Below, one piece after another: positions 4,262 through 24,715 of a stretch of DNA of 64,000 nt. A program made the position numbers and the translations under genes. Source of the DNA: Octopus vulgaris (lineage: Eukaryota); NCBI GenBank assembly GCA_951406725.2, contig OX597833.1, positions 29,574,001 through 29,638,000 of the forward strand, in the 5' to 3' direction. Position 1 is the first letter of the stretch; the number at the start of each line of letters is the position of its first letter. The notes below the pieces were generated by a model. It was not told the DNA's origin. It was given only the letters and a program-made list of their open reading frames with translations, and did not search any database.

Positions 4262-5043
4262 AGTTATGACCTTGAGAGAAAAGCTGGACCTAAGAAGCAT
4301 CAGTTGTGGTGTGCAAGAGAGACGTTTGCGCTGGTATGGTCATGTGGCGAGAATGGATGAAGATAGTTGTGTGAAAAAGTGCCACACCCTAGTGGTTGAG
4401 GGAACCTGTGGAAGAGGCAGACCCAGGAAAACCTGGGACGAGGTGGTGAAGCACGACCTTTGAACTTTAGGTATCACTGAGGAAATGACTAGAGACCGAG
4501 TCCTCTGGAAGTGTGCTGTGCACGAGAAGACCCGGCAGGACAAGTGAGTCCATAACCCGTGGCCTTCTACATGGGATGGAGCCAGCCTACGTATGCATAC
4601 CTTCCCTGCTTGGGACACAAAACTCTACTTGTGAAGACCTGTTGAGGCAAGTGAGGATCAGAATCGAAATCGATCAATGGAAATTGCAGATGTGTTACCA
4701 GTGCCGGTGGCATGTAAGAGAACCTTCCATTTCGCGACCGTTGCCAGCACCGCCCCGTTTCGTGTCCGTTGCCAGCCTCGCCTGGCCCTCGTGCCGGTGG
4801 CACATAAAAAGCACCATCCGTTTGTGGCCGTTTGCCAGCTCTGTCTGGCACCTGTGCGGGTGGCACGTAAAAAGCACCCACTACACTCTCGGAGTGGTTG
4901 GCGTTAGGAAGGGCATCCAGCTGTAGAAACACTGCCAGATTTGACTGGGCCTGATGAAGCCTTCTGGCTTCACAGACCCCAGTAGAACCGTCCAACCCAT
5001 GCTAGCATGGAAAACGGATGCTAAACGATGATGATGCTGATGA

Positions 5044-13197: not shown

Positions 13198-16087
13198 GAA
13201 ATAGAAGGGGGTATAGCTCCTTTAACGAAATAGAAGGGGGTATAGCTACACATGGGGTAGAAGACAACTGGACGCTACTAAGGGACAACTTGCTGAAAGC
13301 CACTAACCAGATCTGTGGCTGGTGTAAAGTCCCCTCAAGACCCAAAATAGTGGAACAATATTGTTGACAGGGCTATTAGACAAAAGAAACAGGCTTGGAA
13401 GGACTGGAAGAACGGTGGTAGCAGGGAAGTGTATCAGACTGCCAGAAGGGAAGCTAGGAGGCAGGTGTATATAGCCAGAGGGGAAGCAGATAAGAAAAAA
13501 TTTGCCAATGTTCTGCGCCGTGAGGATGAAAGACTTGAGGTATTTCGTGTTGCAAGACAGTGTGTGAGAGAGAATCGTGACGTGGTAGGAGAGAAATGTG
13601 TTCGCAGGGATGATGGTTCACTTGCGCTAAATGAGGATGCAAAGAGAGAGGTTTGGAGATGCCACTATGAAAGGTTGCTGAATGAGGAAAATGAATGGGA
13701 TAAAGAGAGTCTGCCGAATGTCGACCCAACAGAGGGACCAGCAAACCGAGTTGACAGTTCCTTAGTAGTTAAGGCAATTACAAGCATGAAAACAGAGAAA
13801 GCCCCAGGCCCATCAGGAATTACTGCAGAGATGCTCAAAATATCTGGTAGTGTCAGCTATAGCCTAGTCACTCGTATAGTTAACCAGGTGATAACACGAA
13901 GGAGTCATACCCAATGACTGGTGTAGCGGCATAATAGTCAACTGCTACAAAGGTAAAGGTGACGCCCTAGATACAAATAACTACAGGGGTATCAAGCTGT
14001 TGGATCAGGTAATGTAGGTTATGGAGAGGGTTATAGCCCAACTAATTAGAGAGAGAGTTAACTTAGATGAGATGCAGTTTGGGTTCGTGCCAGGAAAAAG
14101 TACTACTGATGCGATATTCCTGGTAAGACAGCTGCAGGAGAAATACCTACCCAAAGATAAGCCCCTGTACCTGGCTTTTGTTGACATGGAGAAAGCCTTC
14201 GACAGGGTCCCCCGATCCCTTATCTGGTGGTCAATGAGGAAACTAGGGATAGATGAATGGTTAGTGAGAGCTGCACGAGTCATGTACAGGGATGTTGCTA
14301 GTAAGGTGAGGGTTGGCAACGAGTACAGTGAAGAATTCCGGGTAGAGGTTGGGGTCCACCAAGGTTCAGTCCTCAGTCCCCTCCTATTTATCATAGTCCT
14401 CCAGGCAATAACGGAGGAATTCAAGACAGGATGCCCCTTGGAGCTCCTCTATGCTGATGACCTTGCTCTAATTACTGAGTCACTATCAGAACTGGAGGAG
14501 AAGTTTCAGGTGTGGAAGCAAGGATTAGAATCGAAGGGCCTTAGAGTCAACCTAGCTCAAACCAAAGTCCTAATAAGTAGGAAGGTAGACCAATCACAAA
14601 CGCCTTCAGGTAGATGGCCCTGCTCGATCTGTAAAAAAGGTGTAGGTAGAAACTCTATAAGGTGTACCAAGAGTAAGCTATGGACACATAGGAGGTGCAG
14701 CAATGTCAAAGGAAGGCTAACTAGGAAAATAGTTTTTGTCTGTGGCAGATGCTCAGGAGCAATAAACACTGAAAATGTGCAGACACCAACTTCTACCACA
14801 TTCCAGGGAGAAAAACTAGAAGTAGCTGATAGCTTCGCTACCTAGGTGACCAAGTCAGTAGCAGGGGTGGGTGTGTTGAAAGTGTAACTGCTAGAGTAAG
14901 AATAGCTTGGGCAAAGTTTAGAGAGCTCTTGCCCCTGCTGGTGACAAAGGGCCTCTCGCCCAGAGTAAAAGGCAGGCTGTATGATGCATGTGTACATACA
15001 GCCATGCTACATGGTAGTGAAATATGGGCTGTGACTGCTGAGGATATGCGTAAGCTTGCAAGAAATGAAGCCAGTATGCTCCGATGGATGTGTAATGTCA
15101 GTGTTCATAATCGACAGAGTGTAAGTACCTTGAGAGAAAAGTTGGACCTAAAAAGCATTAGTTGTGGTGTGCAAGAGAGACGTTTGCGCTGGTATGGTCA
15201 TGTGACGGGAATGGCTGAAGAAAGTTGTGTGCAAAAGTGCCACACCCTAGCAGTTGAGGGAACCTGTGGAAGAGGTAGACCCAGGAAAACCTGGGACGAA
15301 GTGGTGAAGCACAACCATCGAAATTTAGGTCTCACTAAGGAAATGACTAGAGATCGAGACCAATGGAAGTATGCTGTGCGTGAGAAGACCCGGCAAGACT
15401 AGTGAGACCATAACCCGTGGCCTCTACCTGGTATGTAGCCAGTCGACTTATACATACCTTTCCTTCTTGGGAGACAAAACTCCACTTGTGAAGACCCGTT
15501 GAGGCTAGTGAAAATCAAAATCAAACCAAATCAAATCAGATATCAGAAAGCAGAACCAAAATCGAAGCCGATCAACATCAATGGAAATTGCAGCTTTGAT
15601 ACCAGTGCCGGTGACAAGTAAGCGAACCATCCGATCGTGGCCTCCGTGCGGGTAGCACGTAAAAAGCACCATCCGTTCGTGGCCGTTGCCAGCCTAGCCT
15701 GGCCCCCGTGCCGGTGGCACGTAAAAAGCACCATCCGTTCGTGGCTGTTACCAACCTCGCCTGGCCCCCGTGCTGGTGGCACGTAAAAAGCACCATCCGT
15801 TCGTGGCTGTTGCCAACCTCGCCTGGCCCCCATGCCGGTGGCATGTAAAAAGCACCATCCATCCGTGGCCGTCTGCCAGCTACGTCTGGCACCTGTGCGT
15901 GTGGCACGTAAAAAGCACCGACTACACTCTCGGAGTGGTTGGCATTAGGAAGGGCATCCAGCCGTAGAAACACTGCCATATCAGACTGGGCCTGAAGCAG
16001 CCTTCTGGCTTCACAGACCCCAGTTGAACTGTCCAACACATGCTAGCATGGAAAGCGGACGTTAAATGATGATGATGATTATGATGA
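13198..16087 (+). mobile_element. RTE LINE, 5'-truncated, RT region plus full 3' UTR
   Basis: QFGFVPGKSTTDAIF, FVDMEKAFDRVP, GVHQGSVLSPLLF, LLYADDLAL, RLRWYGHV, GRPRKTW; frameshifts and stops; six 3' UTR repeat units; (GAT)n then (TA)n. Confidence 0.95.
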
Positions 16088-16112: not shown

Positions 16113-16167
<55 letters not shown>

Positions 16168-16301
16168 TAAATTAGAGATAAAACCACTATTAGGCAAATC
16201 AAACAGTGAAAAACATAAGCCAATGCATAAAATTAATTTAATTTATATTATTTTAAATATATATCAAAAGTATTAAAAGTTTAATAAAAGATAAAGAGTA
16301 A

Positions 16302-16396
16302 AACACTACGATCGTTTCATGGCTGTACCAATTCGAATAACAATAATTTAAATTCAATTAATAATTCGAGTTATGGTTACAGTCAATCTTCAGGTT
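16302..16396 (-). ncRNA. Type I hammerhead motif with long stem II
   Basis: AAC-CUGAAGA-U-UGACUGUAACCA..UCGAAU..AUUCGA..UGGUACAGCCA-U-GAAA-CGAUCG-UA-GUGUU; palindromic stem III; weak stem I. The 3' half is repeated inverted at 20787-20817. Confidence 0.75.
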
Positions 16397-16678
16397 AATT
16401 GAAATATTTAAAAAATAATCAGAAATATTTAAACAATATTTTTAAGATATAAATAATATAATAGCAATAATAATTCTCTAAACGAGATATAGACAGTAAC
16501 TACTCCATAACAAAAGGGACATTAGCCATTTGAATGTGGCTAGGGACAGGGCAGGGCAGTGGGGGTGTTACTGATGCATTTAGCCCCAGGCGATCATCAA
16601 CGTCACCAGATAGGCTGACACCATCACGGTGTCCTCTATCCTGCAAAGGGAGATCATTCCCCGAAGAAGCGGATGCCA

Positions 16679-16723
16679 CATACGGACCCAGGTTTCGAGG
16701 TGTTTGCCTCTCGTCAACGTATG
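16679..16723 (-). ncRNA. Type I hammerhead motif (U3 variant) in GC-rich module copy A
   Basis: CAUACG-UUGACGA-GAGG(CAAACA)CCUC-GAAA-CCUGGG-UC-CGUAUG. Confidence 0.75.
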
Positions 16724-17120
16724 GTAGGCACCGCCCCTCGACGAACGACTCTCTGTGCAGGATATTTATATATAGATTTTCACGTAAATACATTTACTGA
16801 TTTCGAAAATCTGTTCTGCTTCTTCGGGGAATGATCTCCCTTTGCAGGATAGAGGACACCGTGATGGTGTCAGCCTATCTGGTGACGTTGATGATCGCCT
16901 GGGGCTAAATGCATCAGTAACACCCCCACCGCCCTGCCCTGTCCCTAGCCACATTCAAATGGCTAATGTCCCTTTGGTTATGGAGCAGTTACTGTCTATA
17001 TCTCGTTTAGAGAATTATTATTGCTGTCGAACAGATTTTCGAAATCAGTAAATGTATTTACGTGAAAATCTATATATAAATATCCTGCACAGAGAGTCGT
17101 TCGTCGAGGGCGGTGCCTAC

Positions 17121-17165
17121 CATACGTAGACGAGAGGCAAACACCTCGAAACCTGGGTCCGTATG
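17121..17165 (+). ncRNA. Type I hammerhead motif in GC-rich module copy C (core mutated)
   Basis: CAUACG-UAGACGA-GAGG(CAAACA)CCUC-GAAA-CCUGGG-UC-CGUAUG. Confidence 0.65.
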
Positions 17166-19514
17166 TGGCATCCGCTTCTTCGGGGAATGATCTCCCTTTG
17201 CAGGATAGAGGACACCGTGATGGTGTCAGCCTATCTGGTGACGTTGATGATCGCCTGGGGCTAAATGCATCAGTAACACCCCCACCGCCCTGCCCTGTCC
17301 CTAGCCACATTCAAATTGCTAATGTCCCTTTTGTTATAATAATATAATAATTTTACTTATAATAAACTCTATTATCAAACTAGAAACATAAAACTTAACA
17401 ATTATGATTATATCAAAATCGACTATAATGTTAAATATTAATTTTAATTTATAAGGTAGGAAACCCACCAATAATCTAATATCGGTAATAATCTATATCT
17501 AATTACATAAATATTTAAAAATGACTATTATATATAAATTATCAATGAAAATATATAAATGTATATAAATATTATAATTAAGATCTAAAATAATCTTTAT
17601 AAATAAATATATATACACTTATATAAAAACCTAATAAATTAATTTTTCATATTTAAAGATGAAATAGCTAATTTCAAAAATACAAATAAAGAAACTTAAA
17701 CGAACTTTCGGAAATCTTATGTGTAATACTTATAGAAATAATCAATTCGTAGTAATATAGTATCGAATAAATACTATAAATACTATAAATATAATTATCA
17801 ATGGGAATAACTAGCGAATATCAATTTAAAAAGACAATAACTAAGTTATGCTATTAAATTAGACATGGCCTGGACCAATCTTTAGTCGAAACATATCTAA
17901 GTTTATCAAAGTTTATCTAATTTAATTATAAGAAATATAAAACTACAATTAATCCTATTAAAACATGTATATACAAAAGCCTAACTTTATACACCTCGTA
18001 TACTTGCTATCAAACAACAAATCTATCGCTAAGTAGTATCTTACGAATAAACTTAAATTTAATATCTAATAATATAGAAAATTACGATAATTAGATCATT
18101 ACATAAACAACGATATTTACATAAAGAAAATATTATTACACCAAAGACTTATAAAATATTAAAATTTACAATTTGAAGATCTTAAATATAAATAAATACT
18201 TATCTTAGCCAGGTTTAGTAATGAACTAAATTTTTGAATCGGAAAACGTCTGTACAGCGTTTATAAGAATACTCGTGGAATTACGTTATTAGCAAAAAAA
18301 TAATAAATTGTTGAAAAATTCATTAAGCGTGAGGAACATATGCTTTATCAATGAGATTGTGAATAGGAACATTAATGGTTTATCAGTGTAAATAGAATGA
18401 AGTCACAAATAAAGAATAAAATCTCTCTATACTATAATATTTATTAATAAAATAACTATGATAAATAATACTTAATACAAAATAAATTAAATAATTTAAA
18501 TGATTAAAAACCACTAATTATTAAATATATTCTAAAAATCTTATATGATTAATAAATATATATTTTTATATAGTAACCCCTTATCATACTATAAAGTCTT
18601 TCCCCAAGCTAAAATTAGTGATCATAACCAAATCTATAAAATACTTATCAAAAATTTGCAGTATAACTATACATACGTATACATAAATATATAAAAATAT
18701 ACATACATATACATATATATATATATATACATATATATATACATATATATATATATACATATATATACATATACATATACACATACATACACACATACAT
18801 ACACACATACATACATATACATATATACACACATATATACACACACATACACACATACGCATATGCACTCACATACATACAATACTCAATATATACACAT
18901 ACACCTATATACACCCCCCCACACACATAAATAAATGTATATACATATACATATATATACACGCACATCAACATATACACATATATACATACACACACAA
19001 ACACATATATCATATAATAAATACGTATATAAATGTCTATATTCATACTACAATACAAAAATAGAGGTAAACATTAAGTTTAATCTAAATAGTTAATCTA
19101 CTAATCTATACTTCTATATTAAATAAAATAGATTAAATAAACAACTAAATAAATCTATTTCAAATATAAAGAGATTACATACAAATAGATTAATATAACA
19201 CAATTATAATTTAACGAAATTATAACAGAAATATAACAAAATATATAAACTTAACTTTATTATAAGATAAATAAAATTGTAACTTACCAGACTCTATATT
19301 CAATAAACCATTAAATATTTATTAAAAAATATATTTAGTAATAAAATATTTAGTAATAAAATAAACAACTATATATAATCTAACTATAATTAAAAACAGA
19401 AACTAAATAACTAAAATAAACTAATATAATAAGTACTACAAATCACCTGCTATATTTAGAATACTATTACATAAATCAACAAATAAGGAGCTAATTAAGG
19501 CTAAGAAATATTCA

Positions 19515-20780
19515 TTATTTATCAAGAAATTTATTATATAAGTAAAGTAACTTGTGTCTGCATTTTATTTTGCGCTCATCCCAGGTATTCACTAAATTAT
19601 CATGCTTATAAAATAAAATTTCCATAAACTCATTTGAACATAAATAACAAAAATTCCCTCCTATACTATATGATTTAGCCTTACTAATTATTTCCCAAGA
19701 TAAATTATAATTAATATTTTGGGATTTAAGTCCCCAAATGTACTTGCTAAGTCCAGTGGAGTTAATTAAGTTTTTATTTTTAAATGAATGCATATGCTGT
19801 GCGATTCTTAATTTTATTTTAGAGGAAGTGGACCCTATATATATCGCGTTTGAGTTATTATTACTCTTATTATTCTCATCATGTAATGTAACTATACATT
19901 TATACACTACATCGTTAATATCACATTTATTATTTAATTTGAATTTAGTTTTATCTCTACATGTACAGTTAATTAGTGTCTTATCTTTTTTATTATTGGT
20001 ATTATTATATAATTTATTTTTATAAAAATTATTCAGTTTAAATTTGTTAAAAGAAGAAATAATGTTACCTACACTATTAGTGGTAGAATAACCTACTCCA
20101 AAATTATTACTAGAGAAAATGTTTTTATATTTACGATTATCTCAAATAAATAGTTCAATAATATCTAAAATCTCTTTAATAATGTTCGTTTTAACTTGAG
20201 CACCATAAGGAGCTATTAACCAAATTTTATTCTTATTTTCTTTCTTCTTATTATTAAAACTGTCATTATTATTATTACCATTATTATTATTATATTTCTT
20301 TATCATATTATTATTATTATTATTAAATTTAAATTTATAATTAACATTTAAAGAATTATTAAAGTTATTATTTTTATTTTTATTTTTATTCTTATTTTTA
20401 TTTATATTATTTTTATTTTTATAATTTCTAAGATTATTACCAATATTACTAACAAAATTATTATAATTATTATTAATATTTTTATCTGTAATATTAATAG
20501 TTTTATCTTTATTTTTAATAAAAAAATTAATATTACTATTATAACCTGCCTCTCTAAGGGCCTCATTGTAATAAGGAGCATGTTTATTAAAAATCTCTAA
20601 ATCATAAGAAAGTAATGATATACGTTTACTTATATTATTAATCAACGTTTTTTAATTGATGGTGGGTGATTACTATTAACATTTATACATCTAAGGTTCT
20701 CATTAAGTTTATGATATGGTTGTGTTTTACCTGTAATTAGATTAAAATTAACATCTAAATAATTAACATTAAAATTCTCA
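19515..20780 (-). pseudogene. PLE RT C-terminus plus GIY-YIG endonuclease (C-terminal EN, CxC linker; possibly Hydra clade)
   Basis: NYLDVNFNL, SNHPPSIKK, SKRISLLS..FNKHAPYYNEAL..GY, IWLIAPY, INCTCR, VVYKC..YIGST..KLRIAQH..CYLCSNE. ORFs 20142-20645 and 19515-19907 are in the same frame with one TGA between them. Clade assignment is from recall only. Confidence 0.88.
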
Positions 20781-21041
20781 TTATATATTGGTACAGCCAT
20801 GAAACGATCGTAGTGTTTTACTCTTTATCTTTTATTAAACTTTTAATACTTTTGATATATATTTAAAATAATATAAATTAAATTAATTTTATGTATTGGC
20901 TTATGTTTTTCACTGTTTGATTTGCCTAATAGTGGTTTTATCTCTAATTTAATATAATATAATATATTTATACTATAAAATTGGATTTAATCCTAAATCT
21001 GATTTTTCCCTGTAAGTTTGGATTTATTCCCTAATATTTTA

Positions 21042-21095
<54 letters not shown>

Positions 21096-21126
21096 ATCAA
21101 AATAAAAACATGATGCCAAGGATTCA

Positions 21127-21204
21127 GCGGTACATATGTTTCGGGCCTTTATTAGACAGATTTATAACAATGCATAATGTATGTCTGTGGCCTTCTTCAG
21201 CCGC
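21127..21204 (-). ncRNA. Type I hammerhead ribozyme motif, canonical core
   Basis: GCGG-CUGAAGA-A-GGCC..ACAGA..UCUGU..GGCC-C-GAAA-CAUAUG-UA-CCGC. Confidence 0.85.
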
Positions 21205-22085
21205 GCACAACAGCTTCCACAAGGACATGTGTTACATCAAAAATTCTTGGTTGGGGATGCAAATCCTCTCATTCGCGTACGACATAATGCGGCAACAGCA
21301 TAGAATTGAAGCGTCCATCTCTTTCTTCTCTTAATGTAGAATGAGGAAATTTGGATGTTGAAGTAATGTAAATAAATTAATAAATAAATACATATATAGA
21401 CGTTGGGGACCTAGTGTATTGGGGACCTAGTGTATTGTAAATCAGAGCTGTTGAGTAGTTAATCTAGTTCCTCAACAGCTCTGATTTACAATACACTAGG
21501 TCCCCAGACGCTCCTGTTGATTTATTGACACCCAAAGCTTCTACAACTAAATTTTGTCATTTTCCTGACCACCATGTTTGGTCCGTAACCTCTATACATC
21601 CCTTATCTTTATATTTTTTTACATTTTTATCAATTTTATTCCTATTTTTATTTTTTTACTTTTATTTCTATTTCTATTTTTACTTTATAACCTTATGCCT
21701 TTATATTCATTTATATTTTTTATATTCTTTATATCCCCTTTATATCTCCTTATATCTCTTTATATCTTTATACTCTACATTTTTATATTTTTCTATACTT
21801 ACACTTTTTATATATTTTTTATCCTTCGTCCTGAATTCTCGCCCCTCCATCTTTACCCCTATTTACTCTTATTACCAGGTTCCTTCACGTCTATATATGT
21901 ATTTATTTATTAATTTATTTACATTACTTCAACATCCAAATTTCCTCATTCTACATTGAGAGAAGAAAGAGATGGACGCTTCAATTTTATGCTGTTGCTG
22001 CATTATGTCGTACGCGAATGAGAGGATTTGCATCCCCAACCAAGAATTTTTGATGTAACACATGTCCTTGTGGAAGCTGTTGTGC

Positions 22086-22163
22086 GCGGCTGAAGAAGGC
22101 CACAGACATACATTATGCATTGTTATAAATCTGTCTAATAAAGGCCCGAAACATATGTACCAC
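22086..22163 (+). ncRNA. Type I hammerhead ribozyme motif, canonical core
   Basis: GCGG-CUGAAGA-A-GGCC...GGCC-C-GAAA-CAUAUG-UA-CCAC (one stem I mismatch). Confidence 0.8.
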
Positions 22164-22268
22164 TGAATCCTTGGCATCGTGTTTTTATTTTGATCAATTT
22201 ACTCCACCACCTACACCACCAAACGGTATACACAGGTGCTTATAATTATCAAGTACTCACCCCGAATT

Positions 22269-22627
<359 letters not shown>

Positions 22628-22630
<3 letters not shown>

Positions 22631-24715
22631 TGCTCAAAATATCTGGTAGTGTTGGCTATAGCCTAGTTGCCCGTATAGTTAACCAGGTGATAAACGAAGG
22701 AGTCATTCCCAATGACTGGTGTAGCAGCATAATAGTCAACTGCTACAAAGGTAAAGGTGACGCCCTAGATACAAATAACTACAGGGGTATCAAGCTGTTG
22801 GATCAGGTAATGAAGGTTATGGAGAGGGTCATAGCCCAACTAATTAGAGAGAGAGTTAGTTTAGATGAGATGCAGTTTGGGTTCGTGCCAGGGAAAAGTA
22901 CTACTGATGCGATATTCCTGGTAAGACAGCTGCAGAAGATATATCTAGCCAACGATAGGCCCCTGTACCTGGCTTTTGTTGACATGGAGAAAGCCCTCGA
23001 CAGGGTCCCCCAATCCCTTATCTGGTGTTCAATGAGGAAACTAGTGATAGATGAATGGTTAGTGAGAGCTGTGCGAGCCATGTACAGGGATGCTGCTAGT
23101 AAGGTGAGGGTTGGCAATGAGTACAGTGAAGAATTCCGGGTAGAGGTTGGGGTCCACCAAGGTTCAGTCCTCAGCCCCCTCCTATTTAGCATAGCCCTCC
23201 AGGCAATAACGGAGGAATTCAAGACAGGATGCCCCTTGGAGCTCCTCTATGCTGATGACCTTGCTCTAATTACTGAGTCACTATCAGAACTAGAGGAGAA
23301 GTTTCAGTTGTGGAAGCAAGGGTTAGAATCGAAGGGCCTTAGAGTCAACCTAGCTAAAACCAAAGTCCTAATAAGTAGGTAGGTAGACCAATCACAAACG
23401 CCTTCAGGTAGATGGCCCTGCTCGATCTGTAAAAAAGGTGTAGGTAGAAACTCTATAAGGTGTACCAAGTGTAAGCTATGGACACATAAGAGGTGCAGCA
23501 GTGTCAAAGAAAGGCTAACTAGGAAAATAGTTTTTGTCTGTGGCAGATGCTCAGGAGCAATAAACACTGAAAATGTGCAGAGACCAACTTCCGCCACATT
23601 CCAGGGAGAAAAACTAGAAGTAGTTGATAGCTTCCGCTACCTAGGTGACCAAGTCAGTAGCAGGGGTGGGTGTGTTGAAAGTGTAACCGCTAGAGTAAGA
23701 ATAGCTTGGGCAAAGTTCAGAGAGCTCTTACCCCTGCTGGTGACAAAAGGCCTCTCACTCAGAGTAAAAGGCAGACTGTATGATGCATGTGTACGTTCAG
23801 CCATGCTACATGGTAGTGAAACATGGGCTGTGACTGCTGAGGATATGCGTAAGCTTGCAAGAAATGAAGCCAGTATGCCCCGATGGATGTGTAATGTCAG
23901 TGTTCATACTCGGCAGAGTGTAAGTACCTTGAGAGAGAAGTTGGACCTAAGAAACATCAGTTGTGGTGTGCAAGAGAGATGTTTGCGCTGGCATGGTCAT
24001 GTGACTAGAATGGATGAAGATAGTTGTGTGAAAAAGTGCCACACCCTAGCAGTTGAGGGAACCTATGGAAGAGGTGGACCCAGGAAAACCTGGGACGAGG
24101 TGGTGAAGCATGACCTTCGAACTTTAGGTCTCACCAAGGAAATGACTAGAGACTGAGACTTTTGGAAGTATGCTGTGAGTGAGAAGACCCAGCAGGACAA
24201 ATGAGACCCATGGCCTCTACCTGGGATATAGCCAGTCGACTTATGCACACCTTTCCTTCTTGGGACATAAAACTCTACTTGTGAAGACCTGTTGAGGCAA
24301 GTGAGAATCAGAATCAAAATCGAAATCGATCAACATCAATGGAAATTGTAGCTGTGATACCAGTGCCTGTGGCACGTAAGCGAACCATTCGAACGTAGCC
24401 ATCCGAACGTGGCTCGTAAAAAGCACCATCCGATCATGGCCGTTGCCAGCCTCGCCTGCACCCCCACCCCCGTGCCGGTGGCACATAAAATGCACAATAT
24501 GACCGTGGCCGTTTGCCAGCCCCGTCTGGCACGTAAAAAGCACCCACTACGCTCACGGAGTGGTTGGCATTAGGAAGGGCACCCAGCCGTAGAAACATTG
24601 CCAGATCAGACTGGGCCTGGTGCAGCCTTCTGGCTTCCCAGACCCCAGTTGAACCGTTCAACCCATGCTAGCATGGAAAGCGGACACTAATTGATGATGA
24701 TGATGATGATGATGA
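22628..24715 (+). mobile_element. RTE LINE, 5'-truncated
   Basis: ORFs 22630-23382 and 23575-24156 (YADD, RYLG, GPRKTW); 3' UTR; (GAT)n then (TA)n. Confidence 0.95.

Follow-up and report, generated by a model that had tools for sequence, protein, structure and literature searches.

A retrozyme insertion, likely made by a Penelope-like enzyme, at a reused site in the 3' end of a Hydra-clade element of Octopus vulgaris

Inside an extremely AT-rich element of the Octopus vulgaris genome lies a structured module in three copies, one of them inverted, and the question is what this module is and how it came to be there. It was studied in a window (the whole stretch of DNA that was analyzed) of 64,000 nucleotides on a chromosome-scale contig of the 2.8-Gb genome. 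We consider it probable that the module is one retrozyme insertion, likely pasted by a Penelope-like enzyme into an older Hydra-clade element, at a preferred site within the 3' end of that element.

The insertion was delimited to 875 bp (16463-17337). Its building block is a 356-nt hammerhead-bearing repeat: the inverted arm A abuts the oppositely oriented partial tandem B+C, with an 11-12-bp target-site duplication at the outer edges. The fixed ends of the family, called e1 and e2, are at unit positions ~310 and ~355, respectively. The parts are as follows.

16452-16462, plus strand: left target-site duplication, AATAATATAAT, of 11 nt, or 12 if the ambiguity is allowed for
16463-16816, minus strand: arm A, a complete retrozyme unit followed by its tail, reading outward and ending at e2 (unit position ~354-356)
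16815-17027, plus strand: copy B, a 5'-truncated unit that starts at unit position 144 and carries a 46-nt tail
17028-17337, plus strand: copy C, unit positions 1-310, ending at e1, with the tail absent
17338-17348, plus strand: right target-site duplication, the second copy of AATAATATAAT

Copies A and B meet head to head with a 2-nt overlap (TC). Copy B begins about 12 nt past the cut site and therefore holds no ribozyme; the B-C spacing, 356 nt, equals the unit length. A preliminary description had reported three near-identical copies with A opposite in orientation to B and C. Sequence comparison confirmed this arrangement and slightly corrected its limits: A and C are 99% identical over 310 nt, A and B 98% over 211 nt, and the differences (A-C 4, A-B 4, B-C 3) are each private to one copy. 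The same description called the module GC-rich and CpG-rich. The latter holds (CpG observed/expected 0.93, against 0.36 for the whole window), whereas the module is GC-rich solely relative to its flanks, with 46-49% GC in absolute terms against their 20%. The triplication is real; an assembly artefact is made unlikely by the recurrence of this architecture at 40 other loci, by the differences private to each copy and by the duplication on either side. With an inverted arm, a partial tandem, a one-sided tail and a short target-site duplication (11-12 bp) all present, what looked like a triplication is, as read from the sequence, a single Penelope-type integration event.

The AT-rich surroundings were assigned to a second element (~16142-21045, minus strand) that lies between TA runs and comprises, in order, an inverted terminal arm, a broken ORF, a long UTR and a hammerhead of its own.

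16142-16451, minus strand: host 3'-terminal region, with its own hammerhead, ending in (TA)n
17349-19514, minus strand: remaining host 3' UTR, ~20% GC, with a microsatellite (18668-19016) that is also found in relatives
19515-20824, minus strand: host ORF, 5'-truncated and broken, with the C-terminus of a reverse transcriptase (RT), a linker and a GIY-YIG-like nuclease
20760-21045, plus strand: host inverted terminal arm, with a 68-nt tail

The host hammerhead has its core, CUGAAGA, at 16393 and the segment GAAA-CGAUCG-UA at 16318. The host family numbers 18,732 candidates, and its intact ORFs are ~840 aa long. Pfam returned nothing above cut-off for the host ORFs or those of relatives, and a PDB sequence search with the host gave no match. 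The motifs YRDD and IYIG/VYIG were recognized by eye. The nuclease region in the window is 81% identical to that of a relative, L083, whose predicted model (pLDDT 79.9) has telomerase RTs as its best matches. L083 also carries RIKWK (RWK in relatives), SDKT, CTCRDKSNC, CYLC and CRH; in the window copy, the final Cys of the linker is missing. Both the telomerase-like RT with a C-terminal GIY-YIG-type nuclease and the RWK/DKT/CxCx5C/CxxC/CxH motif set of the Hydra clade were thus found, and the AT-rich flank is, on these motifs, a separate, 5'-truncated Hydra-clade Penelope-like element. An earlier label of "Neptune" was dropped for Hydra once the clade motifs had been compared.

Several other features of the host and its neighborhood were recorded. 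Between RT and linker, the ORF holds an Asn-rich, low-confidence insert (window 20142-20651; also in L083); PMC3846280 describes a similar insert in rotifer Penelope elements. Near host copies, further hammerhead motifs belong to other families (L075:6089, L088:1139, L095:13 and, on the minus strand, L094). Adjoining the host 5' end, another two-armed inverted insertion lies between TA runs (21089-22201), with arms of ~310 nt or more that are 97% alike over the 112 nt compared. LINE reverse transcriptase fragments, which we take to be RTE-type, are present at 14018-15402 and 22624-23382. The 62-nt tandem repeat found at 15638-15919 occurs again at 4755 and 33704.

The module was present in one of 40 fetched host relatives, and it is on this ground that we regard it as a later, independent insertion, to all appearances a guest in the host 3' UTR. 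In the 20 closest relatives the site motif was matched 12 times, and 11 of these matches were empty. The module was at first considered as a pLTR belonging to the host itself. This was ruled out, since 39 of the 40 relatives lack the module and the host has its own hammerhead; comparison of the module with the ends of the host family (40 loci) detected no sequence similarity.

A search of the octopus genome, which the preliminary description had proposed for copy number and tandem arrays, gave 1,696 candidates for the module, the best 40 scored being 95-100% identical to it. Three sister subfamilies (F2, F3 and F4; 80-85% identity to the module's own, F1) form longer arrays of up to ~10 units, with units of 353-360 nt joined directly tail to head and bearing type I hammerheads; F5 and F6 are more distant. 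Eighty loci were fetched, and 54 distinct complete insertions with both ends in view were kept. Two arms were found in 42 of these; in 40 of the 42, one arm ends at e1 and the other at e2, the rule that the window follows with C at e1 and A at e2, and 35 have TA runs on both sides. In none of the 54 does an arm run on into an ORF. The module has no coding region (the stop-to-stop frames that it overlaps are short, at most 104 aa) and no LTR pair. Its GC content is below 50% (0.46-0.49), and its monomer is stably self-paired, as judged by circular folding (z from -3.1 to -6.7) and covariation. At the window locus the hammerhead motif occurs in A and C only. At least two consecutive intact hammerheads, the criterion for an "active" retrozyme in a 2026 preprint (10.64898/2026.07.22.740005), are absent from the window (B has no motif and C carries U4A) and present at sister loci such as L068 and L160; in that preprint, eight of nine tested dimers failed to cleave. 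The module is accordingly placed by its sequence among the non-LTR retrozymes, an already known kind, with a predicted hammerhead.

Among contigs from sequencing runs (runs not recorded as RNA), family variants were found together with the empty-site joint, in which 12 letters fit both sides; none of these contigs spans the window locus. A contig of 387 nt carries a permuted unit with redundant ends, such as either a tandem array or a circle would give.

The fold had been called viroid- or retrozyme-like. Viroid-like replicons are defined by RNA-to-RNA replication, with ribozymes in both polarities. Here, the hammerhead was found on one polarity of the unit only, spread is by DNA insertions with duplications, and no sign of RNA-to-RNA replication was seen, so the first half of that label was set aside. 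The retrozyme half was borne out by the genome-wide tandem arrays and by a covarying, extended rod. The relevant elements of the module are listed here.

16685-16717, minus strand: hammerhead core of A, type I, UUGACGA (a U3.G8 variant), with the predicted cut between 16685 and 16684
17071-17082, plus strand: TATATATAAATA tract, TATA-like, a putative promoter
17081-17207, plus strand: rod, which extends hammerhead stem I and pairs the 5' with the 3' end in a cut monomer
17127-17159, plus strand: hammerhead core of C, UAGACGA (U4 to A), with the predicted cut after 17159

An Rfam scan of the window gave no match at the gathering score. By eye, a type I hammerhead was readable in A (core at 16717) and C (core at 17127), and none in B. 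That of A has helix II GAGG/CCUC, a helix III of A-U and C-G, and the loop CUGG. UUGACGA, with its U3.G8 wobble, is the commonest F1 core (18 or more of 33 units), and UAGACGA was seen in C alone. The cores of the other subfamilies are CCGAUGA (F2), CUGACGA (F3) and a U3-A8 variant (F4); it is the U3-A8 variant, not U3-G8, that is described in PMC4209133. Helix III comprises one or two pairs and has a self-complementary loop in every subfamily (CCUGGG, CCAUGG, CCGG), which, by analogy with PMC4209133, suggests that cleavage may be dimer-dependent. Since B lacks a ribozyme, the core of C is U4A and the ribozyme of A is on the minus strand, the window copy probably cannot release a monomer and would be a dead end.

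The rod that had been described as an extension of stem I does fold as claimed (-61 kcal/mol; z -6.12, none of 200 shuffles folding as well), although this z is inflated, the stretch having been picked for being a rod. Copy C as a whole folds at z -2.5 on the plus strand and -1.35 on the minus strand; for circular monomers, z is -3.1, -5.4 and -6.7, each against 25 shuffles. The other hairpins that had been named are present in the consensus fold. Covariation was counted in 11 related units from four subfamilies, from which the structure itself had been derived: both sides had changed in 7 of the 33 pairs of the rod, in 1 of the 6 of stem I and in 10 of 86 overall, compared to 0-3 with the partners slid, and none of 500 shuffles reached the covariation score. 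The hairpins downstream of the rod are largely invariant and thus uninformative, and the fold of the 3' half received no support across five subfamilies (1 of 50 pairs). In monomers running from ribozyme to ribozyme, the rod joins the 5' end to the 3' end by pairing, an arrangement that suits circularization.

A TATATA core of the putative promoter tract is common to F1-F4, and its TATAAATA extension was found in F1 only. A transcription start 25-30 nt downstream of the tract would land in the 5' strand of the rod. Two similar stretches were observed in the host: the reused site described below overlaps TATAAATA at 16450-16457, on the strand antisense to the host, and a tract similar to TATAAATA lies ~90 nt before the ribozyme in an intact host subfamily. 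The long dsRNA that had been suggested for A against B and C could form only if the locus were transcribed through.

The site of insertion was then located in host copies without the module. It reads AAGATATA AATAATATAAT AATTTTAC, with 255 exact empty copies and 299 copies of the left flank; in the window it is 59-69 nt upstream of the host ribozyme core. Six subfamilies were found inserted at one host base as two-armed insertions, in both orientations and with the same duplication. For each, the end on the left and the longest possible duplication are given.

Window: F1, e2 left, 12 nt
L068: F2, e1 left, 13 nt
L133: F3, e2 left, 13 nt
L140: F4, e1 left, 13 nt
L134: F5, e1 left, 12 nt
L174: F6, e2 left, 14 nt

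The window sets the minimum duplication at 11, and 11-12 is compatible with all cases at the site; duplications at four non-repetitive sites outside the hotspot (L017, L151, L153, L159) also fit 11-12. Two one-armed inserts, L165 (e2 left) and L204 (e1 left), start at the same left base. The host copies with inserts are 87-100% alike over the flank. The different guests at the same host base show that the events were independent; L134 and L204, which share a subfamily, might not be independent of each other.

Locus L068 was found without any junction pattern. The right-junction search demanded a known junction, so that only the opposite side of each match was independent. In a gapped search over 17 left positions, five of eight matches were true inserts, all at one position, and none was found at any other left position. 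Among the first 100 of the 299 left-flank sites, 23 were not exact empties (judged by eye), and four of these held an insert, again at the same position. A more TA-like control site gave three matches, none an insert, among 324 copies. The contrast (5/299 against 0/324) has a Fisher P of 0.025, or 0.052 without the window, for one control site and non-identical search patterns. Matches to the patterns that were not insertions comprised L135, L136, L141, L164, L167, L169, L171-L173 and 18 of 19 further left-flank sites. No host-type end was seen among nine right-junction matches, i.e. the host family was not seen inserting at this site. Two other occupants were recorded. The F6 retrozyme of L174 (L174:571-6456, G000:C1:7665571-7671456; core CUGAUGA) holds a LINE of 5.5 kb that has zinc knuckle, APE and RT domains; a ~20-bp repeat within the unit flanks this LINE. 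At L138:1443-1501, an unassigned 47-58-nt insert occupies the shared host site as well, and its duplication is the same.

The architecture, ends, duplication, site reuse and conserved structure were observed directly; the remainder of the mechanism is proposed as follows. Tandem source arrays would be transcribed and then cut by hammerheads, probably acting as dimers via the self-complementary helix III, and the rod would hold the monomer ends together, favoring their ligation into a circle. The two target strands would be nicked at positions 11-12 nt from each other by a Penelope protein, probably dimeric, and 3' overhangs would result. From both 3' ends the RNA would then be reverse-transcribed, starting at e1 from one end and at e2 from the other, and either start site might be used at either nick. 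The resulting cDNAs would be of variable length, extending beyond one unit where the template is circular or multimeric, and would be joined head to head through microhomology (the 2-nt overlap in the window). Copying beyond unit length needs circular or multimeric RNA, and the data fit both alike. The cut geometry is thus likely to be a pair of nicks separated by about one helical turn, both of which prime reverse transcription; an interval of that size would fit a dimeric protein. For Penelope elements, a dimer has been predicted and nicking in the element's own pLTR reported; the tail is described as the interval between two RT start sites, both strands are cut and extended in vitro, and hammerhead cleavage is not required for insertion (all PMC11167929). 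Inverted arms, tails and 8-10-bp duplications have been described for Penelope insertions (PMC3846280). Targeting guided by the template was not adopted, the pairing between RNA start site and target being limited to 1-2 nt on inspection.

As to the enzyme, a very young Penelope-like family was noted in the same genome (L176-L195; e.g. G000:C21:32437928-32440012), with an intact 727-aa ORF in many identical copies, RWK, DKT and CNCx5C motifs, its own hammerhead and ends 69 nt apart. This Hydra-like family is a candidate for the active enzyme. Both autonomous families, host and young, have two fixed ends, 68-69 nt apart. The unit matched the ends of neither (20 loci of the young family were fetched, 17 with its hammerhead), and the mobilizing enzyme is for this reason named only as a candidate. 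A bolder proposal, to which we give rather less than even weight, is that Hydra-clade proteins would make a fixed 11-12-nt staggered nick and prime twice on circular retrozyme RNA, at a recognized landing site just upstream of the Penelope ribozyme, used by one retrozyme subfamily after another, so that the parasites would land in their likely helper.

Inverted arms, partial tandems and tails are typical of ordinary Penelope insertions (PMC8557442, PMC3846280), and the module could be the detached pLTR of an autonomous Penelope element yet to be found, an extreme 5'-truncated insertion made from linear read-through RNA without a circle. The Penelope-protein candidates that were scored, 63 of 37,792, leave room for such an element. 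We nevertheless judge this improbable: the absence of any arm running into an ORF (0/54), the arrays of ~10 units joined tail to head, the lack of similarity to the two autonomous families examined and the covariation of a rod joining the monomer ends all speak against it. The arms might instead have arisen by self-priming, i.e. fold-back on one cDNA or an antisense template, rather than both from DNA nicks. Head-to-head palindromic junctions have been so interpreted for rotifer Penelope elements (PMC3846280), and the A/B junction does have its 2-nt overlap. Fold-back alone, however, leaves unexplained both the pairing of e1 with e2 in 40 of 42 two-armed insertions and the constant duplication at both ends in either orientation; one-armed inserts, moreover, begin at the same nick. 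The chance of this account is likewise small.

That the site is nothing special, one of many AT-rich targets whose reuse reflects the search, is a somewhat more serious but still unlikely reading. It draws on the preponderance of insertions in (TA)n, on the single control and on the P of 0.052 without the window. The discovery of L068 without a junction pattern tells against it, as do the single position recovered both by the gapped search (5/8 matches) and among the first 100 left-flank sites (four inserts), and the emptiness of a control that is more TA-like. The module was first taken for a promoter-plus-ribozyme cassette of the AT-rich element, and it might also be a host regulatory dsRNA locus. 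A TATA-like tract does stand upstream of the ribozyme, TATA boxes occur in rotifer pLTRs (PMC3846280), and the inverted arms could pair over 211-310 nt. The cassette did not survive comparison, however: the host has its own hammerhead, 39 of 40 relatives lack the module, the duplication bounds it and the inversion is the family's standard insertion product. Both forms of this reading are therefore highly improbable, and the retrozyme insertion at a preferred host site is retained.

Penelope-like integration, and the mobilization of animal retrozymes by Penelope, have so far been mostly inferred. Nearly all insertions of the family are in TA microsatellites, where the cut is unreadable, and a unique site reveals the cut geometry. 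This one (30 bp, six subfamilies, one duplication length) yields a DNA substrate with two predicted nicks and two predicted RNA start sites, and with the young 727-aa family as candidate enzyme the twin-priming model becomes directly testable. What is new is the reused host site with its constant duplication; the kind of retrozyme and the Penelope-type insertion were already known. Neither a fixed, reused site nor a fixed duplication length for animal retrozymes was found in the literature passages covered.

The module resembles the metazoan non-LTR retrozymes of Cervera and de la Pena 2020 (PMC7229834) and of Li, Clavereau and Pollet 2026 (10.64898/2026.07.22.740005) in its non-coding tandem units of the 350-390-bp class (see also PMC7761336). 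Those also have <50% GC, one type I hammerhead with a short helix III per unit, a highly self-paired monomer and a co-occurrence with Penelope-like elements. Compared to them, the octopus family differs in being dispersed as two-armed insertions whose two ends are fixed and whose duplication is constant, in the lack of detected homology to a pLTR, and in its predicted non-canonical cores (UUGACGA, CCGAUGA). Its ribozymes share with the minimal, dimeric Penelope hammerheads of PMC4209133 a helix I of 6 bp, a helix II of 4 bp, a helix III of 1-2 bp with a palindromic loop and, in F4, the U3-A8 variant; unlike in that account, the F1 majority core pairs U3 with G8 and stem I extends into a ~60-bp rod.

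The host agrees with the Hydra clade as given in PMC8557442 in its RWK-like motif, DKT, CxCx5C linker, CxxC and CxH nuclease motifs, hammerhead and (TA)n targets. It differs in an AT-rich 3' UTR of ~3 kb (terminal region included) with an internal microsatellite and in the Asn-rich insert of its ORF, the clade having been assigned from motifs. The insertion itself is like those of endonuclease-bearing Penelope elements (PMC8557442, PMC3846280, PMC11167929) in its inverted, 5'-truncated arm, partial tandem and one-sided tail, in its (TA)n preference and short duplication and in the two RT start sites that bound the tail. The rotifer Pen2a within Pen3, in opposite orientation and with a 9-bp duplication, is a parallel. 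In contrast to the elements in those sources, the mobile unit has no ORF and its tail is 44-46 nt; the duplication is 11-12 bp, not 8-10 (PMC3846280), and one unique site has been reused by six subfamilies.
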